Positions 13,801 to 45,624 of a stretch of DNA of 64,000 nucleotides are shown here, piece by piece (position 1 is the first letter of the stretch; each line of letters starts with the position of its first letter). The translations under genes and the position numbers were made by a program. Source of the stretch: Ignavibacteriota bacterium. GTDB taxonomy: Bacteria; Bacteroidota; Ignavibacteria; Ignavibacteriales; Melioribacteraceae. The notes under the pieces are model-generated. The model was not told the DNA's origin and ran no database searches. It was given only the letters and a program-made list of their open reading frames with translations. The stretch lies in contig JADJGF010000001.1 of assembly GCA_016708125.1 (NCBI GenBank), positions 3,465,902-3,529,901 on the forward strand, in the 5' to 3' direction.

Positions 13801-13837
13801 AAAATACCTCAAATAATTGTTTAAAAAGGAGGAAAAT

Positions 13838-13922: not shown

Positions 13923-14147
13923 AAAAAATAAAGCGTAAATTTACAGTAATTTTAAGTGATTTACAAATCTAATACATATTAAATAGATTTAGTATTTAAC
14001 TAAATTCTTTAGTTTTTATTGCGAATATTAAAGTATAAATAAAATTTTATTGCAATAAAAAATTTCTTCTATTATTTAATAGAGACAATAAAAACAAGTG
14101 TTATACGTCCCTTGTTAAAATTTATTTGGAAAATTTAAAATAAAAAT

Positions 14148-14738: not shown

Positions 14739-14876
14739 TTTACAATTATAAACTATTTGCCATTGTTAGTAATTCAAAATCGAATTATATTACGATATAA
14801 GTTTTGTTATTTTAAAATGTGCGGTTAGCAAAAATTATTCTTTAGAATAAATTCATTTCCTAATTTGGAGGTGGTT

Positions 14877-16690: not shown

Positions 16691-16713
16691 CAATGAATAT
16701 TTCTGATAAATAG

Positions 16714-21781: not shown

Positions 21782-21805
21782 AATTGGTTAAAAGGAGATT
21801 TATCA

Positions 21806-23110: not shown

Positions 23111-23125
23111 CCAATCGGATTAATA

Positions 23126-23845: not shown

Positions 23846-23849
23846 TAAA

Positions 23850-26323: not shown

Positions 26324-26346
26324 TAAATTTTACAGAAAGGTTTTTT

Positions 26347-31900: not shown

Positions 31901-32455
31901 AATCAGTTTAGTTCGGGAATAGAAAAATCATATTTAAAGGAAAAAGAGATCAGAATAAAATTTAGAATGGTTGATGAAATTAATAATGAAACTGAATTCA
32001 AAAATAAAATTGAAAACGTTCAAGCGCCGATAAATACTAATCGATCTCGACTTGTGAATTCAAATGAATTGCAAACTGATTTTTCATATCGTCCTTATAC
32101 TAATTTGGAATTTGGGTTCTTAATAAAAGTCAGCAGACTTGAAGATAAATTTCCATCAACTCCTACAATACTTGATGAAAATAAATTAAATTTACGTTTA
32201 ACTTTATCCTTATTGGAAAAAGGACGTTTAAGATTTGAATTTGAGCGAACAGAACTTCTTGTAAACACAAATCAAAATATTATTCCATTTGAAATTACTA
32301 ACGGAAATTTAATTGGTAAAAACTATATTTGGAGAACAAATTTTGATTATCGATTTACCGGAAATTTGCAAACAAATATTAATTACTCCGGAAGATTGCA
32401 AGGAAAAGGAAAAGTAATAAACACATTAAGAGCAGAAGCGAGAGCATACTTTTGA
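29000..32455 (+). CDS. Large (1151 aa) outer-membrane beta-barrel-like protein of unknown family
   Basis: Signal peptide (..LLSTVHAQ), N/S/Y/F-rich alternating pattern throughout, C-terminal ...RAEARAYF ending in Phe (OMP beta-signal). TTG start. Confidence 0.6.
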   Translation: MKSLKKINILFILTFLLSTVHAQMDSTQISRVDTFKINFENIYELSSVHVIPFSEKVKINNRLLNPTQYTFNVLNNSISLSDTLTYSIFDTLFIEYNSIDLKLKKHYKNRTLVKYFDSNYNQYIGTVKNESIDLSSKGIFGKELKSSGTLLRGFTFGSNKDLEVNSGLRLQLAGKISDEIEIVAALTDENTPIQPEGNTERLEELDKVFIEIKHKNANAVFGDYNLKQNIGEFGKVERKLQGVVGNFNIENYNGSVSFASSRGKFNSMQFNGIDGVQGPYRLSGTNGENDIIVIAGSEKVFMDGKQLKRGENSEYTIEYSIGEITFTPKILITSLSRITIDFEYTNRQYDRNTISANANTNYFNNKLKFSINAYQEGDNKNNPIDFTISNESEQILNAAGDNQLLASQPGIIELEGDSLGLYSVVDTVISGETYKIYLYSPGFVNSKFNIIFSFVGENNGDYIRESIGKFKFVGVKNGSYLPIKLLPLPEKNQLGNFVIDYSPIDKINLNLEIAGSSYDKNTFSNIDDKDNNGFARNLKIKIAPIDLNIFENNIGSFNGSYRDRFINERFKNIDRINEIEFERNYNTSNSSVNEEKLRELQFNYNPLENIDFIGQYGNLKKGNNFSSERILAKTSWQNYNNINLNYDYDFVNSENSILKSNWFKQNGEISYQLLNLQPGFSFRSENKKENKINIDSLLNSSLNYTEYSPFVNLSLINNLILSAKYTFTKESLPNKGKLIEESKSYTHTYSLSWNEFKEFSTILDFSFRNKKYSETFSQLGLSNNETILLRSQSNINLFDRFIYGNIYYNAASERTAKLEKVFIRVIEGTGTYSYQGDLNNNGIAEENEYIIDPYEGDYIQSTLPTDELFPVIDLKINSRFQIDFAKQFDQSTFINTILNSLYSETTFRIEENSKIIDTKKIYLLNFNSFLNDSTTIRGTNYFQQDLHILKNQRDLSFRLRFTENRNLNQFSSGIEKSYLKEKEIRIKFRMVDEINNETEFKNKIENVQAPINTNRSRLVNSNELQTDFSYRPYTNLEFGFLIKVSRLEDKFPSTPTILDENKLNLRLTLSLLEKGRLRFEFERTELLVNTNQNIIPFEITNGNLIGKNYIWRTNFDYRFTGNLQTNINYSGRLQGKGKVINTLRAEARAYF

Positions 32456-33792: not shown

Positions 33793-33868
33793 AAAAAGTT
33801 CAAATAGTAAAATGAGTCAACAATTTTTTATATTTCATTTATAATTTTTGTTTTTATCTGGAGGTAAA

Positions 33869-34783
33869 TTGGATTTATTAGTCGTTGGTTCTGTAGGTTT
33901 GGATTATGTTGAAACTCCTTTTGGAAAAATAGAAAATGCCTTAGGCGGTGCAGCAACTTATATTTCTTTAACGGCAAGTTATTTTACTCAGCCAATAAAA
34001 TTAGTTGGTGTGGTTGGTGAAGATTTTCCAAAGGAACATATTGAAATGTTGGAAAATCATATGGTTGATTTGGAAAATTTGGAAATAATTAAAAATGGCA
34101 AAACATTTCGTTGGGGTGGAAAATATCATTATGATTTAAATGTTAGAGATACTTTATATACACATCTAAATGTGTTTGAGAATTTCAATCCAATTGTTCC
34201 GGAAAAATCAAAAGAAAATAGTTTTGTAATTTTAGGAAATATTCAGCCATCATTACAGCTTTCCGTAATTGAACAATTAAAGGGAAATAATTTTATTATT
34301 TGCGATACAATGAATTTGTGGATTAACACAACTTTAAATGATCTGAAAAAAGTATTGGCAAAAACTAACGTATTGATTATAAATGATTCAGAAGCAAGAT
34401 TGCTTTCCAACGAAGCAAATTTAATTAAAGCTTCAAGAATAATTAGAGAAATGGGACCGGAATATTTGATAATTAAAAAAGGTGAACATGGTGCATTGCT
34501 TTTCCACAATAATACAGTTTTCTCAGCACCGGCTTATCCTTTAGAATCAATATTTGATCCAACCGGAGCGGGCGATACTTTTCTCGGTGGTTTCGCGGGT
34601 TATTTGCATAGTACAATAGATAGAAATTTTGATAATGTAAAACGTGCCGTAATTTACGGAAGTGCAATGGCTTCTTTCTGCGTGGAACAATTCAGCACAA
34701 AAGGTTTGGAAGATTTAGATAAACTTCAGATACATGATAGATTTATTGAATTTAGGGAGCTTTCAAAATTTGATGACCTTTAA
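33869..34783 (+). CDS. PfkB-family carbohydrate/nucleoside kinase
   Basis: N-terminal LLVVGSVGLDYV, anion-hole/catalytic DPTGAGDTF. GGAGG RBS before TTG 33869. The last two codons and the stop are supplied by the integrated element. Confidence 0.8.
   Translation: MDLLVVGSVGLDYVETPFGKIENALGGAATYISLTASYFTQPIKLVGVVGEDFPKEHIEMLENHMVDLENLEIIKNGKTFRWGGKYHYDLNVRDTLYTHLNVFENFNPIVPEKSKENSFVILGNIQPSLQLSVIEQLKGNNFIICDTMNLWINTTLNDLKKVLAKTNVLIINDSEARLLSNEANLIKASRIIREMGPEYLIIKKGEHGALLFHNNTVFSAPAYPLESIFDPTGAGDTFLGGFAGYLHSTIDRNFDNVKRAVIYGSAMASFCVEQFSTKGLEDLDKLQIHDRFIEFRELSKFDDL
34757..34777. repeat. attL core: 21-bp direct repeat GAGCTTTCAAAATTTGATGAC
   Basis: Identical 21-mer at 44595-44615. Lies in the last codons of the PfkB gene. 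Confidence 0.85.
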
Positions 34784-34948
34784 TGTTTTACTATATTTTT
34801 TAACGTTTCTTTATGTTAGTTAAATTACTACTCTACAATCTCTTAAGTTATTTTATATACAAACAACGTTCTTTAACGTTTTCCAAGAAACAAGATTCTT
34901 TGTTGCGATTTTGTTTCACAAAACATTTTTAACTTAAGAGGAAATAAA

Positions 34949-36082
34949 ATGAAAGTAAAAATTTTCGAAAAAAAATTAAATCCAACTAAACTTTTTCCAA
35001 AAGGTAGAATTGCTTTATATCTTGATTTTTATCACCAAGGAAAAAGAAAATTTGAAACACTTAATTTATTCATTGAACCGGAAATGAGTAAAATTGAAAA
35101 ATCCAATATTAGAGAAATTGCTGAGAAAATTCGGAATGAAAGAGCAACTATATTTTATCAGAATGAATTTAGCGTACAACTTGAAACCACATTAAATAAG
35201 GACTTTAAAGACTATTTAGAAAAATTTGTTCTTTATAAAAAAAATAAGGGAATTACATTTACAGCCTATCATGGTGTATCGGTTAAGATAAATAAATTCC
35301 ATAAAGGTAAACTAACTTTTAGAATGATAGATTCTTATTGGATTGAAAGTTTTTTTAATTTCTTACGAGCTGAGGTAAAGTCAAAAAATACTCAAAACGC
35401 ATATGCAAATAAACTAAGTGCGGTTTTAAATTCAGCTGTAAAAGATAAATTCATTTCTTCAAATCCTATGCTGCATATAAAGAAACCGGAAAAAGTATCT
35501 GTACAGAAAGTTTATTTGATTGAAAGTGAAATTAAACAGTTAATCGATACCCCAATAAAACACAAAGAATTAAAATTAGGTTTTTTATTTAGTTGCTTTA
35601 CCGGATTAAGATATTCAGATATAAAAAAATTAACCTGGAGCGAAATCAAAAATAATCGTATTGAAATAATTCAGAAAAAAACAAAAGAGCCTATTTATCT
35701 TGATCTAAGCGATACAGCAATTGCGATATTAAATCAAAAGTATCAATTAGAAACAATAAACAATATTAAACCAATGCCAAATAGAAGAGTTTTTAGGCTA
35801 CCTGGTAACAAAAGGAATGATTTACTAAGGGAGTGGGCTAAAAAGGCTTGCTTGGATGAAATCCGATGGAAAAAAACTGAAGATTCAAAATCACATCTAA
35901 CTTTTCACAGTGCACGACATACTTATGCAACTTTAGCAATTACTCAAGGTATTGATCTTTATACAGTGAGCCAATTATTAGGACATACTGACATTAAAAC
36001 CACTCAAGTATATGCAAAAATTATTAATGAAAGAAGAAAAGAAGAACTTAAAAAACTTCCATTATTTGAATCATTTGCTTAA
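34949..36082 (+). CDS. Tyrosine-type site-specific integrase
   Basis: Catalytic pattern FTGLRYSD (R), HSARHTYAT (HxxR), LLGHTDIKTTQVYAKI (H, Y). N-terminal SAM-like/arm-binding region. Confidence 0.9.
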   Translation: MKVKIFEKKLNPTKLFPKGRIALYLDFYHQGKRKFETLNLFIEPEMSKIEKSNIREIAEKIRNERATIFYQNEFSVQLETTLNKDFKDYLEKFVLYKKNKGITFTAYHGVSVKINKFHKGKLTFRMIDSYWIESFFNFLRAEVKSKNTQNAYANKLSAVLNSAVKDKFISSNPMLHIKKPEKVSVQKVYLIESEIKQLIDTPIKHKELKLGFLFSCFTGLRYSDIKKLTWSEIKNNRIEIIQKKTKEPIYLDLSDTAIAILNQKYQLETINNIKPMPNRRVFRLPGNKRNDLLREWAKKACLDEIRWKKTEDSKSHLTFHSARHTYATLAITQGIDLYTVSQLLGHTDIKTTQVYAKIINERRKEELKKLPLFESFA

Positions 36083-36092
36083 AGGTAATTAA

Positions 36093-36887
36093 ATGGATAA
36101 AACTTTAATAAATATTATTGTTGATGAAATTGAAAAAGAAATTGTTAGTACAGATCAAAGGCATTATTCAGAAATTCAAGAATCTGAACTTTTAAATTTA
36201 CGATATAGTGAAGAACTTGATAATGATTCAAACTTTTTAGCTTACAAAAATAGAATTTTTTCTCATGGATTTGTTTTAAGAAAAACTAATCAAGATAAAT
36301 ATATTTTCTATAATGAAGTTCTAAAATTTATTAATAATATTTATAAACCGGATATACTAAGAAAAACAATTGGAAATAATAAAATTGTTTCGAAATATGA
36401 AACAACTAAGGTTTTATCAATTCTGAATGCTGAACATTATTTAAAAAATGAAATTGAGGAATTGTCTAAATTAATTCAGTTAAATCTTCAGAAAGAAACG
36501 AAAGAAGAAATTAAAGAGGAATTACCGGACCTGATAAATGGTCCTGAAGAAAATCCAAGAGAAAGGAAAATTTCAAAATTTATTGAAGACTGTTTTTTAC
36601 ATTTGGATGGTGAAATTGTCAATTTTTTTAATGTGGAATTTGGAAATAAAAAAATTAATAAGCAACAAAAAGCTTTTCTTTGTAATGAAGCTGCAGTTCA
36701 AAAATTTAGTTTTGAATCAGATAAAAATTTGATCAAAATGGCAATAGGGAAAAACTTAAAATTAAATTTGGAAAAGGACATCATAAAACAGGTTTCGAAC
36801 CTTATTCATAATGCTGAAAACAATCATGAAAAAGGGAAAATATTGTTATTTTTAAGTAGTGAACTTGCGAAAAAGATAAATAAATAA
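36093..36887 (+). CDS. Hypothetical protein (element-encoded)
   Basis: ORF with an RBS-like AAAGG upstream. No recognised motif. Confidence 0.5.
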   Translation: MDKTLINIIVDEIEKEIVSTDQRHYSEIQESELLNLRYSEELDNDSNFLAYKNRIFSHGFVLRKTNQDKYIFYNEVLKFINNIYKPDILRKTIGNNKIVSKYETTKVLSILNAEHYLKNEIEELSKLIQLNLQKETKEEIKEELPDLINGPEENPRERKISKFIEDCFLHLDGEIVNFFNVEFGNKKINKQQKAFLCNEAAVQKFSFESDKNLIKMAIGKNLKLNLEKDIIKQVSNLIHNAENNHEKGKILLFLSSELAKKINK

Positions 36888-36898
36888 AAGGGTGAGCG

Positions 36899-36967
36899 TC
36901 AAACCTCACTTTTTACCTCAAACCTCACTTTTTACCTCAAACCTCACTTTTTACCTCAAATTTTACC
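36899..36967. repeat. Tandem 19-bp repeat TCAAACCTCACTTTTTACC x3 plus a 12-bp partial copy (iteron-like)
   Basis: Three perfect head-to-tail copies at 36899-36917, 36918-36936 and 36937-36955, then tcaaattttacc. Confidence 0.95.
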
Positions 36968-37030
36968 TTAAAACGATTTGAACAACTTTATTTAAATAAC
37001 GTTATTTGAAGTAACATTTTTGGATATTAA

Positions 37031-37348
37031 ATGACTTCAGATCAAGAAAAACAGTTAGACGATTTAAATAAACAAATTCAAGAAATGAAATCAGATAGAA
37101 TAAAATTTGATAAAGAATTAGAAAAATATAATTACAATCCAAATTATAAGGCAAAAAAAATGGAAGAAAAAAAAAGTGAAATCGAGAAATTAAAACTGGA
37201 AGAAAAGCGTATGTTTGATTTGCATCGTGAATATTGGAACAAACCCAATCTTTCACAATGCGAGCTTGGACTTTTTCAAAGAAATGCTACAGAATTAAAG
37301 AATATTAGAGTTAAAATTTCTGAAGAGGAGAAAAAATTAAATGGATAA
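37031..37348 (+). CDS. Hypothetical coiled-coil protein
   Basis: K/E-rich heptad-like sequence. No motif. Confidence 0.45.
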   Translation: MTSDQEKQLDDLNKQIQEMKSDRIKFDKELEKYNYNPNYKAKKMEEKKSEIEKLKLEEKRMFDLHREYWNKPNLSQCELGLFQRNATELKNIRVKISEEEKKLNG

Positions 37349-37796
37349 TTTAATTGCACGTGTTTATAAAGTTGTTGAAAATATTGATAAAAAAGAAGGT
37401 GAAGTATTATTAACTGAAGTCAATGAATTGATTGAAAAGAAAAGATCAACATATTTAAAAGCATTTTATCCTTTACTTGCTAAAGGCGATTTCTCCGGAC
37501 ATGAATTAGCAAATACTTCAGCTGAATCAATTCTTTCAACTCACAGGGCACAATTTACAAGAAATTTGAGTAACACACTTTCAATTATTGAAAATTCAGT
37601 TGCTCTAAATAGAATTGATTTTGTGAGCTGCATTATTTACCCTTTAGCTGATTTGTTTGCAGATCAAGTACATCAAAGATCAAGGTTTAATGCAATTAAA
37701 AATGAGTTTGAAGCTGAAGAAAATAGAAAACAATTAAATGAAGAGTGGAAAACTTTATTTTCATTGAAAAGAAAATTATTGGCAACATTAGTTTAA
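37341..37796 (+). CDS. Hypothetical protein
   Basis: Start overlaps the upstream gene. No motif. Confidence 0.45.
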   Translation: MDNLIARVYKVVENIDKKEGEVLLTEVNELIEKKRSTYLKAFYPLLAKGDFSGHELANTSAESILSTHRAQFTRNLSNTLSIIENSVALNRIDFVSCIIYPLADLFADQVHQRSRFNAIKNEFEAEENRKQLNEEWKTLFSLKRKLLATLV

Positions 37797-37797
37797 C

Positions 37798-38067
37798 ATG
37801 AATAAAACAGCAACTCAAATTCTATTGGATGAGATCCAAATTCTAAAAAATCAAATTCATTTGATTTCCGGTACAATTGAAACTTTAGTAAAAACTAATG
37901 AAGATCTAATGACTTCAGAAAATGCAGCAAAATATCTTGGAATTAGTACCGGAGCACTTCGGCAATTAGTTTTTAAAAATAAGTTGCTCCCAAGAAAATT
38001 TGAAGATGGAAGAAAAAATTATTTTCTCAAAAGTGAGATAATTAACATGCTGAAAACAGTAAAATAA
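37798..38067 (+). CDS. Excisionase/MerR-type helix-turn-helix DNA-binding protein
   Basis: MTSENAAKYLGISTGALRQLVFKNKL resembles the HTH_17/excisionase family. 89 aa. Confidence 0.6.
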   Translation: MNKTATQILLDEIQILKNQIHLISGTIETLVKTNEDLMTSENAAKYLGISTGALRQLVFKNKLLPRKFEDGRKNYFLKSEIINMLKTVK

Positions 38068-38222
38068 TCATGATTAGAAAGCTCACACATATTTTATTTA
38101 ATTATCTAACTGATAAAATTAAAATGGTTTATAATGCTGAAAACATTTATTAAAAAAGATCATGAAACAAAATCAACACAAAAACAATTCTTTTTCTTGT
38201 TTCTCTTAAGTACATGCCAAAT

Positions 38223-38260
38223 AAATGCTCCCGTGATCCAAAAGATTACGGAGCATTTTT
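38223..38260 (+). terminator. Terminator-like hairpin just upstream of the DUF4373 gene RBS
   Basis: AAATGCTCCCGT ... ACGGAGCATTT stem (one bulge) followed by TTT. Could be a terminator or attenuator. Confidence 0.45.
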
Positions 38261-38271
38261 AGGGGGGAATT

Positions 38272-39276
38272 GTGGCACGTAACACAAAACAAGGTGTTGA
38301 TTATTTCCCTTTAGATTGTCGTTTTGATGACAATATTGATCTATATTTGACTGAAAAAGAAAGTAACGGATTAGCCGTCTTAATAACAACTTGGCAGCTT
38401 ATTTATTCAAATGATGGATATTTCAAAAAGTTTGATGACGATTTGTTGTTAATGATAAAAAAGAGAATAGGTTTAAGTTTGGATGAAATCAGAAGTTGTT
38501 TAATGGCATGTATTAAGAGAGAAATATTTGATAAAAACCTATTCGAAAAATTCAACATTCTTAGTTCCAGGACAATTCAAAAAATATATTTTTCATCGGC
38601 AAAAAAGAAAAAAGAAATTATTATTGTAAACCTTGACTATTTATTATTTATGCCTGAGAATGATAATTTAATAGATTCCGGCGGAAATAAAATAAATGTT
38701 TGCGGAAATCAAATAGATTCCGGCGGAAATACCACAAAGGAAGAGGAAGAAGAAAAGAAAAAGAAAAAGGAAAACCAACCTAATTTATTTCCGGAAAATG
38801 AAGTTGAAAAGATAAAAGCATTATTTGAAACTTATACGATACATTCTAATCCATATTACAAAACTTTCATTGAGCCTATTTTAGAGTTAAGAAAAAAAAT
38901 TCCTGAAGATATGACAATTGAGCAAATTGATGAAGTTATTACATCATATTTTGTAAAATATGGTAAAGATAAACCTATCAATATGGAGTTTTTTTTAGAC
39001 AATATTTCTAAAGAAATAATAAAAAAGCATGAAGAAATATTAAATATCAAAAAACAAAAACTCTTAAAAGAAGCTGAAAAGGCGAGATTAACATATACAG
39101 AAATTAACCATGAAGCCGATGAAATTTTTAAGAAACAGCAATTGTTAAAACAAAAAGAAAATTTTGATAAGAATTATGATAAATTCTCTGAAGCAGAAAA
39201 AGAGAAATTTATTCGTTTATTTGAAAATGGACTTTCGATGAGTATAAGTTTGGAATTTCCACAATTACAATGTTAG
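38272..39276 (+). CDS. DUF4373 (Lin1244/Lin1753-like N-terminal) replication-initiation-like protein
   Basis: N-terminus ARNTKQGVDYFPLDCRFDDNIDLYLTEKESNGLAVLITTWQLIYSNDGYF is typical of DUF4373 phage replication proteins. GTG start after GGGGGG. Confidence 0.7.
   Translation: MARNTKQGVDYFPLDCRFDDNIDLYLTEKESNGLAVLITTWQLIYSNDGYFKKFDDDLLLMIKKRIGLSLDEIRSCLMACIKREIFDKNLFEKFNILSSRTIQKIYFSSAKKKKEIIIVNLDYLLFMPENDNLIDSGGNKINVCGNQIDSGGNTTKEEEEEKKKKKENQPNLFPENEVEKIKALFETYTIHSNPYYKTFIEPILELRKKIPEDMTIEQIDEVITSYFVKYGKDKPINMEFFLDNISKEIIKKHEEILNIKKQKLLKEAEKARLTYTEINHEADEIFKKQQLLKQKENFDKNYDKFSEAEKEKFIRLFENGLSMSISLEFPQLQC
38671..38731. repeat. 19-bp perfect direct repeat ATAGATTCCGGCGGAAATA x2; GCGGAAAT core x3 at 21-bp spacing
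   Basis: Copies at 38671-38689 and 38713-38731. GCGGAAAT at 38681, 38702 and 38723. Followed by a 39-nt all-purine tract at 38736-38774. Confidence 0.95.
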
Positions 39277-39289
39277 AACGGTTAATAAA

Positions 39290-39580
39290 ATGAGAAAAAA
39301 TAAAACTTCACAAAAAACATTTAGCGAACTAAATGAGAAAATTTTAAATCAACTGATACAATTAACAAATCAGTCTTTTGAGCAACATATAACAAATGTC
39401 TATGAAGCATCAAAAAAAGAAGAGCTACTTTTTTATCTTCAGGGCTTCGGAAATTATATGGATCAAATATTTAAGAATCTTAAAGAAGATTTTGAAAATA
39501 GGTTAATAATCGAACAATGGAGAGATGACTTATTAAAATTGGATCCACTAATTACGGATATTGAACAAAGAAAAAATTGA
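39290..39580 (+). CDS. Hypothetical protein
   Basis: ORF only. Confidence 0.4.
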   Translation: MRKNKTSQKTFSELNEKILNQLIQLTNQSFEQHITNVYEASKKEELLFYLQGFGNYMDQIFKNLKEDFENRLIIEQWRDDLLKLDPLITDIEQRKN

Positions 39581-39720
39581 AAACAATTGAGAACAATCTA
39601 AACTTGATTATTTAATCATATTATTTTGAAATGAGTTAAGGACTTTGTGAAACAAAAAGTATATAAAAATGAAATATTATTTTCCATAAGTTATTAAAAT
39701 GATAAGGTTTATAAAAATCC

Positions 39721-39966
39721 ATGTCAAATGATATTACTAAAACAAAACCTAAAAAAATCAGAAATGTTAAATCGGCTCGAAGATTATTGGCGGATTTGAT
39801 TTATTATCTTCAGCTTGAAATTATTCCAAGTGAAAAAGCGAAGTCAATCGCATATATGCTTATTAAATATGGTGAACTTTTTAAAACTGAAAATCTATTA
39901 TCAATTGAAGAGCTTGAAAAAAGATTTAAAATTTTAGAGGAAAAAATAAATGATAAAAAATCTTGA
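39721..39966 (+). CDS. Hypothetical small basic/helical protein
   Basis: ORF only. Basic N-terminus and a helical C-terminus with an ELEKRFKILEEK coiled coil. Confidence 0.4.
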   Translation: MSNDITKTKPKKIRNVKSARRLLADLIYYLQLEIIPSEKAKSIAYMLIKYGELFKTENLLSIEELEKRFKILEEKINDKKS

Positions 39967-40300
39967 TAAGAGACTTTCAAGACTTGAAGCAAAGATGTTT
40001 TTATTAAGTGAAAATTTTGATCGTGAATCTAAAATTATGGCAATGTTTAAATTTATGGATGAGTACGAATTGGAATTAATTGTTTCAACAAAAGATAACG
40101 TTGAATTAGAATCAATTTTAGATACCATGCTTAAAAAATATGAATATGCATTAAAAGATTTTTCTTTAACAAAAAAAGAAAAATTAGAAATGGAGCTTTT
40201 AAAAACACTTCCAATATATCGGTTAAAAAAAATTGCAAATGGTGAAAAAGAAGAAATAGAAATTTTTAATTCAAGATTAAAAGAATTGTTAGAATCATAA
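39950..40300 (+). CDS. Hypothetical protein
   Basis: ORF overlapping the previous stop. Confidence 0.4.
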   Translation: MIKNLDKRLSRLEAKMFLLSENFDRESKIMAMFKFMDEYELELIVSTKDNVELESILDTMLKKYEYALKDFSLTKKEKLEMELLKTLPIYRLKKIANGEKEEIEIFNSRLKELLES

Positions 40301-40315
40301 AGGAAAAATAAAAAA

Positions 40316-40459
40316 ATGGCAAAGAAAAAAAGTAAAAACTCATCACTAATTACCGGAATTAAAAAAGGCAAGTATTCAATCGGCGCAACTCGTGATCAAA
40401 TTGCAGCTCGTAAAATTGATAAAAATTCTATTGGTGCAAAAAGTTCACGAGAAAAATAA
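40316..40459 (+). CDS. Possible small basic protein (47 aa), not in the ORF track
   Basis: ATG 40316 after AAAGGA. MAKKKSKNSSLITGIKKGKYSIGATRDQIAARKIDKNSIGAKSSREK. Confidence 0.3.
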   Translation: MAKKKSKNSSLITGIKKGKYSIGATRDQIAARKIDKNSIGAKSSREK

Positions 40460-40479
40460 ATTACAAATAGGTTTTAAAA

Positions 40480-40722
40480 ATGGCAAAACTTTTTGAAATA
40501 ACCGACAATTTAACGAAAGAGGAATTATTTCAATTTCTAAATCAAAATAATTTCTTGGTGAAAGATTTGTTGGATTACTTAACAACTTTGGATCTTGGTG
40601 GACTTAATGAAACATTTACAGTTTTAAGAGATGCACATAATGATAGACTATTGATTGAGGAATTAATCACAAAAAAAACTTTAGAAGAAAATCTTATAAA
40701 TGATTCATTGAAAAAAAATTAG
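40480..40722 (+). CDS. Hypothetical protein
   Basis: ORF only. Confidence 0.4.
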   Translation: MAKLFEITDNLTKEELFQFLNQNNFLVKDLLDYLTTLDLGGLNETFTVLRDAHNDRLLIEELITKKTLEENLINDSLKKN

Positions 40723-40734
40723 GGATAAAATAAA

Positions 40735-42951
40735 ATGGCAAACGATAATATTAAAGTTGGTTCTGCAGCGATTGAGCTTGGTGTAATTGACAAAACCAAA
40801 GAGGGATTTGAAAAAATAAAATCAAATTCTAAAAAAGAAGTAAAAAGTTTAGAAGATAGTTTAAAAAATGTTAAAGTACAGTTAGATACAAGAATTGCTT
40901 CAATGCAATTTAAAGAACTTGAAAAATTTCATACTTACCTGAAGAAAAGATTAGAAGAAAAAATAAAATTAAATGTTGATTCAAGAAGCATTGAAACGAC
41001 AAAAACACAAATTGGAGCTGTAGCAGATAAATTAAATAAGTTAAGAACTGAAGCTTCGTTAATGCAAAAATCTTCAGCTAATATTGGGGATTTATTTTCC
41101 GGTGCAATGGGTGTCAAATTATCTACAGCCGGAATAGTTGCCGGTGTTACAGCACTTGGAACGATTGCCGTTGATGCCGCTAAGGCATACATTGAAATTG
41201 AGGGTGTTCAAAATGCTTTCAACAAATTAAACAATCCAAATATTTTAGATAAACTTAGAGAAGTTACTAGAAACACAATTGCTGATTCTGAATTGATGCA
41301 AATTTCATTGAGAGCTGTAGATAAAAATATTTCGTTTGATAATTTGGAAACAATTTTAGAGTTAGCAAAAAACAAAGCAAGTGAAACCGGAATGTCATTT
41401 GATTATTTAGCAATTAAATTAATTGACGATATTGGAAATAAATCAACTTCGGCACTTGAAAATTTTGGTGTATCTGTTAGTGAAATGGAAGCTGAAATTA
41501 AGAATGTTGGTAATTATGGTGAAGCCGCTTTTAACATGGTAAGTAAAAGTATTACTAATATGGGATTTGTAGCGGAAACCAATAAAGACAAATTAGAACA
41601 AATCTATTCACTAATCAAAAATATAAAAGAAGCATTTGGCGGTTTTGTTTTTGATGCAATTAATTTTACTGTAAAATATTCCTCACCTCAAAATATCATG
41701 AATTCTGAAATGCAGGAAGCTTATGAAAAAGTCATGAAAGAATTTACAGCAAAACAGAAACAATTAAATGAATCAATAAAATCAGCACAAAATACAGCAA
41801 GTGAAAACAGCATTGGAAAAAGTGAAAATCAAATATTAGACTATATAAAAATTGTTCAGGAAAAAATTAATAATTTTGGTGAAGCAACAACTGAAGAGGA
41901 AAAAACAAAGTTAGAACAATTAAACGCAAAATTAAATGTTTATAAAAAAGCACATGAAGATTTAGCTCCATTACTAGAGCCATATAAAAAATCCTTAGGC
42001 GATATAGAAGAAAAAATTAAAACACTTCAATCACTTCAAAAAAATTATGCTATTAGCGATTCACAATATTCAAATATCGGAAAAGAAATTGATAGATTAG
42101 AGAATATTATAAACCCAAAAAAAACAAAGGTAAAAGTACCAAAAGAGAAAAAAACTAAATTGGATTTTAGTGAATTTGATTTAATTGGCGAAGATCAAGC
42201 CTGGATGGATGAACTTATTAAAAATGAAAATGAAGCTGCAAAAATTAGACTTGAAAATCTTCAGCTATATATTGATGCAAGGAATGAATTATCTGAAGAT
42301 GAGAAAAAAGATTTGAAAGAAAGATTAGAAAGAGAAAAAGAAATTCATGAGTTAAGAATGAATGCACTAGGCGAATTTGGGAATGCACTTGAGGGATTAG
42401 GTTCACATGGAAAAACATTTGTATCATACTTCAATACAATACTTCAAACAGCATTAAGAATTTCCGATGCATTAAATACAATGAAAGAAGATCCCTTTTC
42501 AGGTGGACTTGGAATTGCTTCAGGAATATTTGGACTTGTAACAAAACTTATTCCCGGCATGGCAAAAGGCGGTTCAGTTTCAAACTTCGGCGGCGGGAAT
42601 ATACAGTTCCAACCTCATCAAAAATTTGCAAGTGGTGTAAATAATTTTGTTGTTCCTCCCGGGTTTAACCGAGATAATTATTTAGTTGGTGTTCAAAGTG
42701 GTGAAAGGTTAAATGTTACTCCGGCAAATCAAACCAACAATCTTTCAACTAAATCAATTGAAAATATTTTATCAGGTATTTATGGCAGAATAGGTGCAAT
42801 GAATTTGAACGTAACTAATGCTATTAGAGGAGGTCTAAGCGATTCTCAAATAATAAACTTGAAGATAGGAGATGAAACTATTAGTAAAGTAATTCAAAGA
42901 AGAACTAATAGAAATAATCGTTCAAATACAAAACCAACAACGGATTTATAA
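40735..42951 (+). CDS. Tail tape-measure-like protein
   Basis: 738 aa, long coiled coils, hydrophobic Gly/Ala-rich segments (GAMGVKLSTAGIVAGVTALGTIAVDAAKAY; GGLGIASGIFGLVTKLIPGMAKGG), and a TP901-type core-like stretch around ...ASETGMSFDYLAIKLIDDIGN. Confidence 0.5.
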   Translation: MANDNIKVGSAAIELGVIDKTKEGFEKIKSNSKKEVKSLEDSLKNVKVQLDTRIASMQFKELEKFHTYLKKRLEEKIKLNVDSRSIETTKTQIGAVADKLNKLRTEASLMQKSSANIGDLFSGAMGVKLSTAGIVAGVTALGTIAVDAAKAYIEIEGVQNAFNKLNNPNILDKLREVTRNTIADSELMQISLRAVDKNISFDNLETILELAKNKASETGMSFDYLAIKLIDDIGNKSTSALENFGVSVSEMEAEIKNVGNYGEAAFNMVSKSITNMGFVAETNKDKLEQIYSLIKNIKEAFGGFVFDAINFTVKYSSPQNIMNSEMQEAYEKVMKEFTAKQKQLNESIKSAQNTASENSIGKSENQILDYIKIVQEKINNFGEATTEEEKTKLEQLNAKLNVYKKAHEDLAPLLEPYKKSLGDIEEKIKTLQSLQKNYAISDSQYSNIGKEIDRLENIINPKKTKVKVPKEKKTKLDFSEFDLIGEDQAWMDELIKNENEAAKIRLENLQLYIDARNELSEDEKKDLKERLEREKEIHELRMNALGEFGNALEGLGSHGKTFVSYFNTILQTALRISDALNTMKEDPFSGGLGIASGIFGLVTKLIPGMAKGGSVSNFGGGNIQFQPHQKFASGVNNFVVPPGFNRDNYLVGVQSGERLNVTPANQTNNLSTKSIENILSGIYGRIGAMNLNVTNAIRGGLSDSQIINLKIGDETISKVIQRRTNRNNRSNTKPTTDL

Positions 42952-43044
42952 TAAGTTCTATGAATGAACTTTCTTAGAATGATTGTTCTTTTGCTTTATT
43001 CTAAATGAGTTACAGAATTTGTGAAACAAAAATAAATCAAATAT

Positions 43045-43860
43045 TTAATTCTTACTTAATATTTCTGATATATTACTTGAAGCTTTAAATACATCTATTA
43101 GATTTGTTCTAAGCATTATTGCAAAAATTTCCTTTTGAGAAAATTGTAAATTATTTTCCTCATTTAAATATTTTCTATTATAAACATCTGCAAAATAATT
43201 TAAACCAGATAAATTTATATATAAATCATCAATCATATTCAAGATATTTGCATTATTGCTAATTCTTAAATTAAATCTTTTTAATATTTTATCAAGATGA
43301 TTTTGAGCCTCACTACAATACTTAATTATTCCATTTATTTCATGTTCTTTGAATTCTAAAGAAATGTCATTTTCTGAAATATCATATTTTAGGTAATTAG
43401 TAAAAGTATTTATGAATATATCAGGTTCTTTGAATAGATCCATTTCGTTTATTTGTAGTTTTTTATTTAAGTCTAATGTTACAAATATTTCATAAATATG
43501 TAAGTTAAATATGAAATTTAATTCTTTATGAATTTTATTTTCAATTGGTTTCCATTTACTTGCTTCATAATAATTAAACATTATGCCAATGATAATTGTT
43601 GAGATCCATATTCCAAGTAATTCAGTTGCAATGTTTAGGTAAATATCTTCAACTTTGATTTCTTCAGAAAAACAAAAATATAATGTAAAAGGAATTAACG
43701 GCAATAGGGAAAAATATAAAATCCACATTGGTTTAAAAGGTAAATATTTCATTTTAAAGAAACCAAAAATTTTAGAAACTTTTGATCTAAAGAAATTTGG
43801 TATAATTGATAATTCTTTGAACTTTGTTTTTAGTAATTGAAAAAATTTTTGAAGTTTCAT
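43045..43860 (-). CDS. Membrane-anchored protein of unknown function (reverse-strand cargo)
   Basis: Hydrophobic segments (WILYFSLLPLIPFTLYFCF; LLGIWISTIIIGIMF) followed by a ~170-aa soluble domain. Opposite orientation to the rest of the element. Confidence 0.55.
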   Translation of the reverse strand: MKLQKFFQLLKTKFKELSIIPNFFRSKVSKIFGFFKMKYLPFKPMWILYFSLLPLIPFTLYFCFSEEIKVEDIYLNIATELLGIWISTIIIGIMFNYYEASKWKPIENKIHKELNFIFNLHIYEIFVTLDLNKKLQINEMDLFKEPDIFINTFTNYLKYDISENDISLEFKEHEINGIIKYCSEAQNHLDKILKRFNLRISNNANILNMIDDLYINLSGLNYFADVYNRKYLNEENNLQFSQKEIFAIMLRTNLIDVFKASSNISEILSKN

Positions 43861-44059
43861 TTTTTGCTTCCGTTGGATTTATTCCTATAAGAATTTTTTC
43901 AAAATAAAATATTCTTACTTTCAGATTAAACATTTTATTTTCTTCTATAAGATTTGAAGTTATACAGTACTCATGAAATATTTTTAAAAGTTTAAGTGAG
44001 GATAAGTCTAATTCCAATTCAATTTCCATGTGAGAGTTTGTTAAAGAAATTACTTTCAA
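43787..44059 (-). CDS. Possible small ORF upstream of and overlapping the cargo gene (or its frameshifted N-terminus)
   Basis: TTG start. Overlaps 43045-43860 by 74 nt in another frame, and an A-run sits at the overlap. Confidence 0.25.
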   Translation of the reverse strand: MKVISLTNSHMEIELELDLSSLKLLKIFHEYCITSNLIEENKMFNLKVRIFYFEKILIGINPTEAKNETSKIFSITKNKVQRIINYTKFL

Positions 44060-44145
44060 AATTAAAAAAAATATTTTGAATAAGTATTGACTATTTAATA
44101 TTTGTTTTTTAAGTTTATATCATTCTAAAAACAAGGCTCTATTCA

Positions 44146-44229
44146 ATGCATCAAAATCAAATGAAATTTTATTCAGGAAAAGAGATTGCCTTGATCGTGA
44201 GATTTTGGCATAGTCACCTTGACTATTAG
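44146..44229 (+). CDS. Possible 27-aa ORF
   Basis: Preceded at a 9-nt distance by the same 14-nt box TTCTAAAAACAAGG that precedes the ATG of 44272-44499. Confidence 0.25.
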   Translation: MHQNQMKFYSGKEIALIVRFWHSHLDY

Positions 44230-44271
44230 AAGATCTCTTTTCCTATAATTCTAAAAACAAGGAGCTCCAAA

Positions 44272-44499
44272 ATGGAAAACACAATCCAACAATCATTTAG
44301 CATCAATGAAAAACTTATTGTTTTAAACACAATACTTGAAAAAGTTTGGACTTTAACATCAAGTTTAAAAGAAGATGAAACCGATGCCAATATTGCAGAA
44401 TCGCATTTAAAAGGTGCACAACTAATTCTAAATTCAGTTACTGAAGATATTCATTCAATACAAGAAAATTTTACAAACAATATTCCGGTAATTGTATAA
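44272..44499 (+). CDS. Hypothetical small protein
   Basis: AAGGAG RBS. 75 aa. No motif. Confidence 0.45.
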   Translation: MENTIQQSFSINEKLIVLNTILEKVWTLTSSLKEDETDANIAESHLKGAQLILNSVTEDIHSIQENFTNNIPVIV

Positions 44500-44594
44500 A
44501 AAGAATTATTTATAAGGACTTTGTATAGATTTTGTTTCACATGAACTGAGATTGTAGGTTAAGATATTTTAATTAACTATGTTACAAAATATGA

Positions 44595-44615
44595 GAGCTT
44601 TCAAAATTTGATGAC
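44595..44615. repeat. attR core: 21-bp direct repeat GAGCTTTCAAAATTTGATGAC
   Basis: Identical to 34757-34777. Contains the mtnA start codon (ATG 44611). Confidence 0.85.
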
Positions 44616-45624
44616 ATCTAATTTTAACTCAATTGATTTGATTGATAACCAATTAATTTTGATTGATCAAACAAAATTGCCATTTGAAGAAACCTATATT
44701 AAAACTGATGATTATGAGAGAATTGCAATTGCTATCGAACGTCTTGAAGTAAGAGGCGCTCCGGCAATTGGAATTTCTGCGGCATATGCAATAGCTCTAA
44801 GTTTTAAAAATGTTTTAGAAAGTAAAAATGTACATTTCGAAAAAGTTTTTTCAAGATTATTAAAAACAAGACCAACCGCCGTAAATCTTTTTTGGGCATT
44901 ACAACGAATGAAAAATATTTTTGAATCAAATAAAAATTCTAAAGATATTTTTGAGGTTTTGCTGAATGAAGCAAAATTAATTCACGAAGAAGATATTTTA
45001 ATGTGTGATAAAATTGCTCAAAACGGATTGCAAATATTTGATAAAATTTCTACAGTTTTAACTCACTGCAATACAGGGAAACTCGCTACCGGCGGCGGCG
45101 GAACGGCATTTAACGTTATTAAATATGGATTTGAAAAAGGTAAAGTTAAATTTGTTTATGCCGATGAAACTCGTCCGTTATTTCAAGGAAGCAGATTAAC
45201 GGCATTTGAATTACATAAATCCGGAATACCATTTTCAATTAACACTGATTCAACTGCTGCTTACTTATTGCAAAATTCTAAAATTGATTTGGTAATAACC
45301 GGCGCTGATAGAATTGCAATTAACGGTGATTCTGCCAATAAAATTGGGACTTATAACTTAGCAGTGTTATGTAAATATCATAAAATTCCTTTCTACATTG
45401 CCGCTCCAACTTCTACAATAGATAAAAATTGCGATACCGGAAAAAAAATCATAATTGAGTTTAGAGATAAAAAAGAAATCAACACTTTAAGAAATGAGAA
45501 AATAACCAAAGATGAATACGAAGTTTTTTCTCCGGCGTTTGATGTAACTCCGAATGAATTAATTTCCGGAATTATTACCGAAAAAAAACTTCATTTACCT
45601 CCTTACGATTTTACGAAAATCTGA
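44611..45624 (+). CDS. mtnA: S-methyl-5-thioribose-1-phosphate isomerase (eIF-2B-related MtnA type)
   Basis: RGAPAIGISAAYA, THCNTGKLATGGGGTA, ADETRPLFQGSRLTAFEL, GADRIAINGDSANKIGTY. Confidence 0.85.
   Translation: MTSNFNSIDLIDNQLILIDQTKLPFEETYIKTDDYERIAIAIERLEVRGAPAIGISAAYAIALSFKNVLESKNVHFEKVFSRLLKTRPTAVNLFWALQRMKNIFESNKNSKDIFEVLLNEAKLIHEEDILMCDKIAQNGLQIFDKISTVLTHCNTGKLATGGGGTAFNVIKYGFEKGKVKFVYADETRPLFQGSRLTAFELHKSGIPFSINTDSTAAYLLQNSKIDLVITGADRIAINGDSANKIGTYNLAVLCKYHKIPFYIAAPTSTIDKNCDTGKKIIIEFRDKKEINTLRNEKITKDEYEVFSPAFDVTPNELISGIITEKKLHLPPYDFTKI

Follow-up and report, generated by a model that had tools for sequence, protein, structure and literature searches.

The 64-kb stretch of DNA analysed here (the window), from the genome of an uncultured member of the Ignavibacteria, carries an insert of 9,838 bp between the two copies of an exact 21-bp direct repeat, GAGCTTTCAAAATTTGATGAC, at the position where the stop of a pfkB-family sugar kinase gene overlaps the start of mtnA. 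The chance expectation for this repeat is 0 (100 shuffles), and the likeness between its two copies reaches 31 nt at 90%. The features of the site and of both ends of the element are listed below; L100 denotes a related element at the same site in another genome.

33848-34783, plus strand: host pfkB-family sugar kinase (Pfam PfkB, E 7e-26), its last nine codons crossing attL
34757-34777, plus strand: attL core, left 21-bp copy (exact repeat; two matches, 0 expected)
34778-34948, plus strand: left att arm and integrase leader, non-coding, about 75-80% conserved with L100
34910-34922, plus strand: motif TTTGTTTCACAAA inside this arm, candidate arm-type or operator site
44531-44543, minus strand: variant motif CATGTGAAACAAA, candidate arm-type site 52 nt from attR, oriented as the attL-proximal copy
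44595-44615, plus strand: attR core, right 21-bp copy (exact repeat), holding the mtnA start
44608-45624, plus strand: host mtnA, S-methyl-5-thioribose-1-phosphate isomerase (TIGR00512, 400.7 bits, cut-off 279; PF01008)

At the left junction the kinase ends in ELSKFDDL*, and the right junction reads ELSKFDDI* in the same frame, which is the reconstructed form. The start of mtnA (TTG 44608 or ATG 44611) lies within the right repeat copy. As the left copy gives pfkB a new end and the right copy holds the mtnA start, both host genes are intact; repeat, exchanged C-terminus and retained start codon are all as the original prediction had read them. It had also proposed a search for related genomes with the empty site. 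Among relatives of other species, the best of which has 70% pfkB identity, mtnA follows pfkB within 1.5 kb in 44/44 loci where both genes were found, none of them with such an insert, and the two genes overlap or abut in 35 of the 44. The overlap itself, TTTGATGA, is conserved. The repeat, the intact genes and the empty loci support the view that an integrase inserted the element as a discrete unit where pfkB and mtnA overlap.

Gene content of the element

Between the repeats we found the following features, in which L001, L101, L156 and L157 denote further elements or islands described below.

34949-36082, plus strand: tyrosine integrase with N-terminal arm-DNA-binding domain, adjoining attL (PF17293, PF13102, PF00589; phrog_1, E 2e-52)
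36093-36887, plus strand: orf264, no family match; similar-sized ORF after int in L100, L001, L101 and L157
36899-36960, plus strand: intergenic tandem repeat TCAAACCTCACTTTTTACC (19 nt x 3.3), candidate operator array
37031-37348, plus strand: orf105, 34% identical to the syntenic L100 ORF
37341-37796, plus strand: orf151, conserved in L100 (42%) and L001 (30%), there too directly upstream of the HTH gene
37798-38067, plus strand: HTH_17 (excisionase/MerR-type) DNA-binding protein, candidate excisionase or regulator (PF12728, 27.7 bits, cut-off 27; phrog_4691 excisionase, E 2e-5)
38272-39276, plus strand: replication initiator (Rep) with Lin1244_N/DUF4373 N-terminal domain (PF14297, E 1e-16; phrog_2562, E 2e-33; phrog_20437, E ~1e-33)
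38670-38774, plus strand: candidate origin within rep, three 21-nt iterons (38670-38731), then an A-rich tract (38736-38774)
39290-39580, plus strand: orf96, no significant match in Pfam, PHROGs or PADLOC
39629-39675, plus strand: 47-nt motif copy with TTTGTGAAACAAA, upstream of the block from orf81 to the tape-measure gene
39721-39966, plus strand: orf81, small, basic N-terminus then three helices; conserved in L100 (65%) and L001 (32%)
39950-40300, plus strand: orf116, overlapping orf81; conserved in L100 (45%) and the N-terminus of an L001 ORF
40316-40459, plus strand: orf47, a very basic 47-aa peptide, the best conserved small ORF (65-68% in L100 and L001)
40480-40722, plus strand: orf80, candidate tail-assembly chaperone by position only, directly upstream of the tape-measure gene in all three close elements
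40735-42951, plus strand: full-length tape-measure protein (TMP) homologue, 738 aa (tblastn, HMMER, end-to-end alignment)
43003-43049, plus strand: second 47-nt motif copy, 77% identical to the first, directly after the TMP stop
43045-43860, minus strand: orf271, accessory gene, N-terminal half hydrophobic, with a GC of about 21%, the lowest in the element
43787-44059, minus strand: orf90, weak match (E 0.001) to an L156 ORF that lies downstream of its TMP gene
44272-44499, plus strand: orf75, no family assigned with Pfam or PHROGs

The integrase comprises Arm-DNA-bind_5, SAM_5 and Phage_integrase domains, and its translation shows the catalytic residues R (GLRYSD), HxxR (HSARH), H (LLGH) and Y (QVYAKI). 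The Pfam and PHROGs profiles thus confirm both the integrase and the excisionase-type HTH protein that had been proposed from the letters; the TIGR01764 score of the latter lies under its cut-off. A 12-nt motif noticed in the same reading corresponds to the 13-nt TTTGTGAAACAAA, which occurs, within the element only, as three exact copies plus one variant. The copies close to the two att ends share one orientation, and the motif is also kept upstream of int in L100.

The Rep-like gene and the ori-like repeats (the 21-nt and the 19-nt arrays) are likewise real. Rep also matches replication initiation proteins of temperate phages, in-gene iterons occur in rep of L100 (9321-9384) and L001 (7657-7781) as well, and L100 has a 9-nt x 2.9 array in the intergenic gap equivalent to 36899-36960. 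The three further ORFs, the small ORFs and the reverse-strand ORFs of the original prediction match those listed above. For orf264, AF2 predicts helices throughout, though the model is not reliable (pLDDT 35); the AF2 model of orf81 (pLDDT 67) gave no match in a Foldseek search. No profile similarity was found between orf80 and the phage ORF in the same position, and no credible match to orf271 in Pfam, PHROGs, PADLOC, NCBIfam, PDB sequences or plasmids.

The sole recognisable structural gene is a true tape-measure homologue. It matches annotated tape measures of Porphyromonas phages in tblastn (E 1e-10 to 1e-17), gave 2,336 HMMER matches and is alignable end to end with 727-747-aa proteins from phage tail modules; judged by this alignment, the TMP is genuine and full length. 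Over the C-terminal 158 residues, its identity to the phage TMPs and to that of L001 is 62-69%. In the loci with homologous TMPs L082-L087 and L099, the gene comes after head-tail adaptor and tail-completion genes and before large distal-tail genes, and all the other full-length TMP homologues that we looked up are embedded in complete tail modules of a siphovirus-like type.

Searches of the element with Pfam, PHROGs and NCBIfam brought up none of the families for capsid, portal, terminase, lysis or further tail proteins, as had been read from the letters; a terS, a cos/pac signal, a gene for capsid remodelling and a tail-assembly chaperone were not recognised in it either. The plus-strand ORFs without an assigned family total about 940 aa, the largest having 264 aa, so that a set of terminase, portal and capsid genes cannot hide there. 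At 9.8 kb and with no coding room for head, packaging or lysis genes, the element is far too small and gene-poor for a complete prophage.

A small family of related elements

Three further elements have the same minimal layout of integrase, HTH protein, replication module and TMP. L100 occupies the same pfkB site, and its host shares 79% pfkB identity and the NUDIX-PAP2-pfkB synteny with the window. The proteins of L100 are related to ours to varying degrees (integrase 67%, HTH protein 66%, orf81 and orf47 65%, orf116 45%, Rep 30%), and the N-terminus of its TMP is present. L001 has the same gene order, with 57-62% identity in the TMP and 68% in orf47. L156 lies where a host gene has its 3' end and is bounded by a 19-bp repeat whose copies are 9,624 bp apart; it contains an integrase 41% identical, an HTH_17 protein, loaders resembling DnaD and DnaC, and a TMP homologue of 793 aa (hhalign 99.8%, E 4e-30). 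The element hence belongs to a small undescribed family in Ignavibacteria-type genomes, of four elements with two of them incomplete or unbounded, and is not a one-off remnant. No relative of this family was found among the IMG/VR viral contigs.

The window and L100 copies, being related and sitting at the same site in syntenic hosts, might both go back to one ancient pfkB integration that has since been inherited vertically as a domesticated, immobile insert. However, the 44 other relatives lack the insert, and L156 occupies a different site. Synonymous sites between the window and L100 hosts are saturated (pS 0.68), yet the 21-bp attL and attR copies of the window do not differ, even where attR has ceased to code, which points to recent integration. 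Moreover, 30% identity in Rep against 67% in the integrase indicates module exchange typical of mobile elements. We regard domestication as very improbable.

A decayed prophage, that is, a siphovirus remnant after loss of head, packaging, distal-tail and lysis genes, would account for the phage-type character of integrase, HTH protein, Rep and TMP and for the complete structural modules around the other full-length TMP homologues. Frameshifts also break the TMP of L001, although at least two of the three frame corrections needed lie in A-runs, which suggests assembly error, though decay may also have played a part. Such decay requires at least two precise deletions, yet the layout recurs in four elements with proteins 30-67% identical, and the small ORFs beside the TMP gene were found in none of the full phages. 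In addition, pN is well under pS for the TMP (0.24-0.26 against 0.59-0.60 in comparison with L001) and also for the integrase, the HTH protein, orf81 and orf47. Neither att core departs from the exact repeat, not even where attR does not code, and the integrase has stayed intact. These findings make decay quite improbable and speak in the same way against the minimal prophage that the original prediction had considered.

Integrases 40-42% identical, from the same clade, are found in islands of about 5-10 kb with int, an ORF of about 230-280 aa, HTH_17 and then a replication gene (Rep/AAA). Instead of the TMP block, these islands carry restriction-modification (L101), HNH and helicase (L102) or GmrSD and HEPN genes (L157/L158) and no phage gene, structural or other. 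Phage dependence therefore does not follow from the int-HTH-Rep backbone by itself. Along these lines, the element could be a non-packaged integrative, self-replicating island spreading by other routes, with the TMP as host-protecting cargo, which may act, for example, as a decoy or poison subunit spoiling siphovirus tail assembly or DNA entry. HEPN and DUF3800 genes lie near L001, the window element has no recognised gene for packaging, and defences against tail assembly exist (PMC11364771; Rta in PMC12987554). On the other hand, the TMP has kept its full length and both conserved end domains, which a working tail part needs and a decoy does not obviously require, and the block of small ORFs linked to the TMP gene in three elements points to a morphogenetic operon and not to a lone defence gene. 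PADLOC gave no credible match, and the nearly equal size of the two bounded elements (9.6 and 9.8 kb) is better explained by a packaging constraint than by an island of cargo. A cargo role for the TMP thus appears unlikely.

Known satellites and a possible life cycle

So far, our findings suggest that the insert is a site-specific integrative, self-replicating island, most likely a phage satellite. The original prediction had favoured a PICI-type satellite over a complete prophage. Its satellite part is strengthened by the three additional elements of the same minimal layout and by purifying selection, whereas the PICI assignment does not hold. With PICIs/SaPIs the element shares the size class (about 10-15 kb), the terminal integrase, regulators with an excisionase-type HTH, an iteron replication initiator, a 'late' block and accessory genes at the far end. 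It differs in that its int-to-TMP genes are all on one strand, in that no terS, capsid-morphogenesis or ppi-type gene was found, and in its tail gene, a forbidden component in the SatelliteFinder PICI models (PMC10085698). An assignment as PICI, cfPICI or P4-like was rejected.

A TMP has also been reported for a class of satellites in Mycolicibacterium, the extracellular prophage-inducing particles (EPIPs; PMC12822802). Their host is actinobacterial, and they carry terS, head-to-tail adaptor, stopper, scaffold and serine integrase genes, none of which was found here. The marine VEIMEs (integrative mobile elements encapsidated in virions), integrated in diverse uncultured bacteria including Flavobacteria, are likewise small, with an integrase, replication modules of various kinds and hardly any structural genes or none (PMC9618062). 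What defines them is that they were recovered as concatemers from virus particles, whereas the window element is known from a genome sequence, and the passages considered describe no TMP for them (PMC9618062).

Neither a helper phage nor a circular form of the element was found, and the full phages with the nearest TMPs are ruled out as helpers by a gap in GC content (35-37% against 26-29% in the elements). A parallel in organisation, though with no sequence family detected in common (Pfam, PHROGs), is offered by the Vibrio PLEs. These are about 18 kb rather than 9.8 kb, and their integrase is a large serine recombinase, in contrast to the tyrosine integrase here. The tail of their helper ICP1 is contractile, whereas the TMP here has its relatives in tail modules of the siphovirus type. 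Neither a TAC nor a baseplate-hub gene was recognised in the element, and the host belongs to another phylum. Like the window element, PLEs are integrated islands with their own integrase, replication initiator and TMP but without capsid genes. Their TMP replaces that of the helper in virions, a chimeric-tail piracy shown experimentally, and tmp deletion lowers transduction by 96-99.9% (PMC12987554).

In the satellite reading, the cycle would begin with recombination by the integrase at a 21-bp core that mimics the conserved pfkB-stop/mtnA-start overlap and rebuilds both genes, a step shown at the sequence level. On infection by a helper siphovirus, or on its induction, the element may be excised by the HTH_17 protein together with the integrase; as its anatomy suggests, Rep would then fire the iteron origin within its own gene, and expression of the orf81-to-TMP block would follow. 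By analogy with the Vibrio PLEs, the element's TMP would go into tails otherwise made of helper parts, and the DNA of about 9.8 kb would be packaged in helper capsids. We put at about 50% the probability that these elements represent a new phage-satellite-like family which supplies its own TMP and borrows the rest of the particle from a helper phage.

Integration at the pfkB-mtnA overlap

The 9,838-bp element is bounded by two exact copies of the 21-mer GAGCTTTCAAAATTTGATGAC (34757-34777, attL, and 44595-44615, attR), the only ones in the 64-kb window; a search tolerating up to two mismatches found no third copy in the window, and 100 shuffles yielded 0. Similarity between the two copies runs on to 31 nt at 90%. 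The left copy is situated among the final codons of a gene for a pfkB-family kinase (33848-34783), the product of which now ends in ...ELSKFDDL*, and joining the left and right flanks in silico restored the C-terminus ...ELSKFDDI*. The start of mtnA (TTG at 44608 or ATG at 44611; identified by TIGR00512, far over the cut-off) is located inside the right copy. Since the kinase end is supplied at the left and the mtnA start lies within the right copy, both host genes survive the insertion, in agreement with the original prediction, whose direct repeat, junctions and gene list were all confirmed. A catalytic recombinase adjoins one end of the element and att-core direct repeats are present at both, the arrangement by which tyrosine-recombinase elements are recognized. 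A tRNA or tmRNA as integration target was ruled out, the sole tRNA of the window (13838-13922) being 21 kb away. At the sequence level, the junctions show conservative site-specific recombination into the conserved pfkB/mtnA overlap, to which the element brings a mimic of the pfkB 3' end.

A scan with one genome per species yielded 80 pfkB loci, with a best pfkB identity of 70%. In all 44 loci holding both genes, from relatives with 52-70% pfkB identity, mtnA lies downstream of pfkB at a distance of no more than 1.5 kb, with overlapping or abutting genes in 35 of the 44, and the overlap sequence ...TTTGATGA... is conserved. In these loci, which come from other species, the site is unoccupied; their gene order and conserved overlap indicate that the pfkB-mtnA adjacency is ancestral and that a conserved target received the 9.8-kb segment by insertion. 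The adjacency of both genes in 44 related loci, with no such insert, also argues against vertical domestication of the insert, which we consider very improbable. In one relative (L032, 10909-12363), about 1.45 kb separates pfkB from mtnA and there is no overlap. An exact-sequence look-up of the window's mtnA and tape-measure protein (TMP) genes matched no contig, and hence returned no second copy of the same strain, empty or occupied.

Outside the insert, the window is ordinary chromosome, with EPSP synthase, CCA/poly(A) polymerase, a TolC-HlyD-ABC efflux set, NUDIX and PAP2 genes before the insert and mtnA followed by recO beyond it. The GC content is 26.5% in the element and 29.2% in the flanks, and is lowest (about 21%) across the reverse-strand ORFs. 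Within 20438-28811, TolC-like, HlyD-like and ABC ATPase genes are followed by four consecutive ORFs of about 410 aa. Two of the four were compared with Pfam, and both are MacB_PCD/FtsX permeases; should all four be such permeases, they would form an unusually large tandem paralogue array. Two further host ORFs (16714-18921, 735 aa; 29000-32455, 1,151 aa) had no Pfam match at E <= 1e-5.

Gene content and comparison with known element classes

Every gene between 34949 and 42951 is encoded on the + strand, and the translated integrase displays the catalytic R, HxxR, H and Y residues.

Features of the window element
From 34949, + strand: tyrosine integrase (int); Arm-DNA-bind_5 (PF17293), SAM-like (PF13102) and catalytic (PF00589) domains; phrog_1, E 2e-52
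After int, before the HTH gene, + strand: orf264, orf105 and orf151, three unknown ORFs
After orf151, + strand: HTH_17 (excisionase/MerR-type) protein, 89 aa; just above the Pfam cut-off; excisionase PHROG, E 2e-5
After the HTH gene, + strand: replication initiator (Rep); N-terminal Lin1244_N/DUF4373 domain, with matches among the replication initiators of phages
Between rep and the TMP gene, + strand: orf96, orf81, orf116, orf47 and orf80, five small ORFs
40735-42951, + strand: tape measure (TMP homology), 738 aa
After the TMP gene, - strand: orf271 (N-terminal half hydrophobic) and orf90
After orf90, + strand: orf75, a small ORF
34910-34922, 39644-39656, 43018-43030 and 44531-44543: copies of TTTGTGAAACAAA

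For orf271, orf90 and orf75, we obtained no credible match in Pfam, PHROGs, NCBIfam, PADLOC, PDB sequences or plasmids, and phage-database searches with orf81 and orf264 were empty. Marginal PADLOC and NCBIfam matches on unknown ORFs were discarded (HamC, 0.016; Csf1, 8.5e-4 over 58 aa; JukA, 0.006). Structure prediction gave three helices for orf81 (pLDDT 67), a model with no Foldseek match at E < 0.9; the single-sequence prediction for orf264 (pLDDT 35) was unusable save for an all-helical tendency. The 47-aa product of orf47 (40316-40459), MAKKKSKNSS..., is very basic.

Three 21-nt iterons are located inside the rep gene (38670-38731), followed by an A-rich tract, and a second array (19 nt, 3.3 copies) lies between orf264 and orf105. 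In phage lambda, the replication origin lies inside the initiator gene O, an arrangement which the window rep gene resembles. The 13-nt near-palindrome TTTGTGAAACAAA (TTTGT-N3-ACAAA) occurs in the window as three exact copies and one variant, exclusively inside the element. One copy is positioned 133 nt inside attL, directly upstream of int, and another, in the same orientation, 52 nt inside attR; two copies bracket the block from orf81 to the TMP gene, each within a 47-nt repeat. The motif also occurs in L100, a related element on another contig, in four copies (5649-5661, 8079, 8705, 10901), of which three lie between genes, one of these upstream of int. It may serve as an integrase arm site or as an operator for an element regulator. 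A scan for sigma-70 promoters and terminators gave counts not enriched over shuffles.

The original prediction had likened the element to PICI-type satellites. Among the components of the SatelliteFinder PICI model (PMC10085698), the integrase is present. For the AlpA-type regulator/excisionase we found the HTH_17 protein, which barely exceeds its Pfam cut-off and has no match to the AlpA family itself, and for the primase-replicase module a DUF4373-type initiator with iterons and no primase or helicase domain. No ORF matched a family of the small terminase subunit (terS) in Pfam, PHROGs or NCBIfam. As the core genes terS and cpm are absent from the window element and the TMP gene breaks the rule of the published PICI and cfPICI models that forbids tail genes (as the PICI model also does holins; PMC10085698), the PICI label proved wrong. 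No family corresponding to the cfPICI capsid, portal, protease, head-tail adaptor/connector or terL genes was matched in Pfam or PHROGs. Together, the + strand ORFs without an assignment encode about 940 aa, the largest having 264 aa (reverse-strand orf271 has 271 aa), which leaves no room for a hidden full virion module. Of the complete-prophage genes (terminase, portal, major capsid, tail tube, distal tail, lysis), none was found in the element besides the TMP gene, and 9.8 kb is also too small for the remaining ones, which excludes a complete prophage.

PHROGs and Pfam detected no P4-like core (psu-delta-sid operon, alpA, epsilon, alpha primase). No ORF contains a relaxase, Mob or Rep_trans domain, and lacking a relaxase, the element is not of the NBU/IME type. 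PLEs combine a satellite-encoded TMP with a tail-assembly chaperone; the element has a TMP. The counterpart of the PLE chaperone would be orf80, a candidate by position only: the profile of orf80 and two homologues gave an hhalign probability of 0.1% against that of the phage ORF preceding the TMP gene. Membership in the PLE family is implausible, as PLEs are described from a Vibrio host with ICP1 as helper, in contrast to the Ignavibacteriae MAG studied here. The element is most PLE-like in its proposed TMP piracy and most PICI-like in its layout; it is no PICI, and probably no PLE either.

Related elements and a shared integrase backbone

Three more elements have the same minimal int-HTH-Rep-TMP layout. 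The first, L100, is a 15-kb Logan contig reached via its orf81 homologue, with the order NUDIX, PAP2, pfkB, int, a 215-aa ORF, orf105-like, orf151-like, HTH, Lin1244_N Rep, orf81, orf116, an 85-aa ORF, orf47, orf80-like and the TMP N-terminus. Identities to the window are 79% for pfkB, 67% for int, 34% for the orf105-like and 42% for the orf151-like ORF, 66% for HTH, 30% for Rep, 65% for orf81, 45% for orf116, 65% for orf47 and 40% for the TMP N-terminus, which is cut by the contig end. L100 is at the integration site of the window element, in a clearly different host, and the non-coding attL arm is conserved at about 75-80%, including the 13-nt motif. Our analysis documents the overlap of the pfkB stop and the mtnA start as a recurrent integration hot spot.

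L001, from a second Ignavibacteriae MAG, has the order orf151-like, HTH_17, a Phage_rep_O initiator, orf81 and orf116 homologues, orf47, orf80-like and TMP; its initiator gene carries iterons of its own. Its orf47 is 68% identical to that of the window, and its TMP is 57-62% identical along the whole length, in split frame pieces. Of the three frame breaks (11330-11350, 11565-11580, 12010-12025), at least two are located in A-homopolymers, so they may be long-read assembly errors rather than decay, and a single gene probably underlies the two published protein calls in this MAG (454 aa and 130 aa). The locus breaks off within the left integrase, which leaves the L001 element without set boundaries. 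Its surroundings hold DUF3800, HEPN_Cthe2314 and DUF3467 genes (759-1496, 13378-14360) and a second integrase (15671-16918), which points to islands in tandem or to a hot spot of defence genes. Across three close elements, orf47 is the best-conserved small ORF (65-68% identity; 74% at the DNA level over 93 nt between window and L100).

In L156, an integrase (41%) is followed by three ORFs, HTH_17, two loaders resembling DnaD and DnaC, and an ORF of 223 aa. Next come a protein of 793 aa, matched by the TMP profile at full length (hhalign 99.8%, E 4e-30), and a set of five small ORFs. It is bounded by an exact 19-bp repeat, the left copy of which includes the stop codon of a host gene; at 9,624 bp between the repeats it is close in size to the other bounded element, that of the window (9,838 bp), a similarity that favors a common family. 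The sequence GTGGTGCA and its complement occur near both of its ends (3920-3970 and 13335-13350), analogous to TTTGTGAAACAAA in the window element, and each element thus seems to have its own arm-site sequence.

Across pairs of elements, pN was far below pS for TMP (0.24-0.26 versus 0.59-0.60), int (0.21 versus 0.65), orf81 (0.28 versus 0.71) and orf47 (0.24-0.27 versus 0.47-0.58). A common minimal architecture in divergent elements, with coding constraint throughout, is not what would be expected of independent prophage deletions and argues against a decayed prophage, an origin we regard as improbable. Against both decay and domestication stands the identity of the two att cores, which extends to the part of attR that no longer codes, despite saturated synonymous sites between the window and L100 hosts. 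The window element is best described as the first recognized example of a small int-HTH-Rep-TMP family within the phage-satellite kind, a reading that rests on four elements (window, L100, L001, L156), known from sequence. The earlier preference for a satellite over a prophage was thereby strengthened, with helper-dependent transfer as a putative property. IMG/VR scans with TMP, Rep, integrase and a conserved 17-nt word of the attL arm found no family member: the best integrase was at most 33% and the best Rep at most 39% identical, and none of the retrieved contigs, 17-mer matches included, encodes another element protein.

Outside L100, the closest integrases share about 41% identity with that of the window element. 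Apart from L156, the islands looked up that carry them span about 5-10 kb and open with int, an ORF of about 230-280 aa, HTH_17 and a replication gene. Their cargo is Rep_1 with a methyltransferase/restriction fusion in L101, HNH and helicase in L102-L104, and an AAA_25 protein with GmrSD and HEPN in L157/L158. The same opening with varied cargo makes the int-HTH-Rep chassis a general one for small integrative replicons in this region of the bacterial tree, with the TMP block as one of several payloads. The main rival to a satellite builds on such a chassis: a phage-independent integrative replicon in which the TMP block would be defensive cargo. We rate it as unlikely, and decay and domestication as less likely still.

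The L101 island (10001-15025, about 5 kb; int, a 234-aa ORF, HTH_17, Rep_1, methyltransferase/restriction fusion) lies in a 2.6-Mb chromosome contig, and a 5,469-nt Logan contig (ERR12037368) carries exactly its six genes; the latter could be the excised circular form. The L157/L158 island (4645-14943 and 737-11035, respectively; GmrSD_N, HEPN_RiboL-PSP and N6/N4 methyltransferase genes) is integrated next to a SpoIIE-domain gene, and L102, with its different cargo, adjoins a similar one.

The tape-measure protein and a proposed satellite cycle

By tblastn, the N-terminal 300 residues of the 738-aa protein match Porphyromonas phage proteins with a tail tape-measure annotation (E 1e-10 to 1e-17). 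A word-indexed protein search returned a single relative because the query is of low complexity; it took an exhaustive HMMER scan, covering 1.84 billion representatives, to find 2,336 relatives. Four full-length relatives (P0003-P0006; 727-747 aa, 37-48% identical) can be aligned with it end to end: the N- and C-terminal domains are conserved, the latter best, and the middle is variable. Every full-length relative for which context was retrieved is encoded in a long co-directional structural module (L082-L087, L099), with ORFs matching head-tail adaptor and tail-completion PHROGs upstream, ORFs of about 248 and 198 aa directly before the TMP gene, and ORFs of about 405, 163, 410 and 1,200 aa after it. 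None of the other window-element proteins is present in these phages. Homology and context identify the 738-aa protein as a genuine, complete tape measure. As a query, the whole TMP alignment degenerated into a low-complexity pattern with no true matches in metagenome or viral contigs; its C-terminal part matched no locus in IMG/VR and a single one in metagenomes, which belongs to a full phage (L099). A PDB sequence search with TMP gave nothing credible. A programmed frameshift joining orf47 to orf80 was rejected since the required direction differs (-1 in the window, +1 in L100 and L001).

The sequence shows the element to carry repeated motifs in its two att arms, an integrase that is intact and includes an arm-binding domain, an iteron-bearing initiator and an intact, constrained TMP. 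In the cycle we propose, the HTH_17 protein would direct excision, Rep would drive autonomous replication once the element is excised, and the block from orf81 to the TMP gene would act as a late operon; the element's TMP would then enter tails built of helper proteins, and helper capsids would package the element DNA. This cycle draws on the precedent of Vibrio PLEs and EPIPs. In Vibrio PLEs, satellite TMP, chaperone and hub protein replace those of the helper in virions, and deletion of tmp lowers transduction by 96-99.9%; putative tmp genes also occur in PLE-like elements and some cf-PICIs (PMC12987554), and EPIP satellites of Mycolicibacterium carry a TMP as well (PMC12822802). Profile searches, hhalign with orf80 and Foldseek with orf81 recognized no terS, packaging signal, capsid-size factor or chaperone in the window element. 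The full phages with related TMPs have a GC content of 35-37%, compared to 26-29% in the elements, and so are not the helpers. These negative results, like the lack of family members in IMG/VR, count against the satellite reading. The near-equal length of the element and phage TMPs (738 versus 727-747 aa) and the best-conserved C-terminal domain make compatibility with the helper tail tip seem likelier than an altered tail length. We can speculate that an own TMP marks the element's particles, resists defence directed against the helper TMP or evades TMP-targeted exclusion in recipients.

Our most far-reaching reading, to which we assign a probability of roughly 40%, is that these islands of about 9.7 kb represent a new, phylum-spanning class of minimal satellites. 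They would contribute to the virion only a tape measure of their own, as the protein of the tail lumen and DNA channel, and possibly a handful of small partners, and would pirate all its other parts. Until 2025, satellites were held to carry no tail genes, and search tools still turn down candidates with them (PMC10085698); the PLEs then showed a satellite swapping in its own tape measure (PMC12987554). If our reading is correct, an independent and much smaller family in a distant, uncultured lineage does likewise, and tape-measure piracy would be a general strategy, old and widespread rather than peculiar to Vibrio PLEs. A search signature of about 10 kb, in which int, HTH_17 and a Rep gene containing iterons accompany an orphan TMP, could then reveal elements that present satellite finders exclude by design. 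As one of the four elements behind this reading, the window element is a coherent, testable lead from a lineage so far unexplored and parallels a discovery made by experiment very recently, and the family would provide the first satellite candidates for Ignavibacteria-type bacteria of wastewater and sediment communities.
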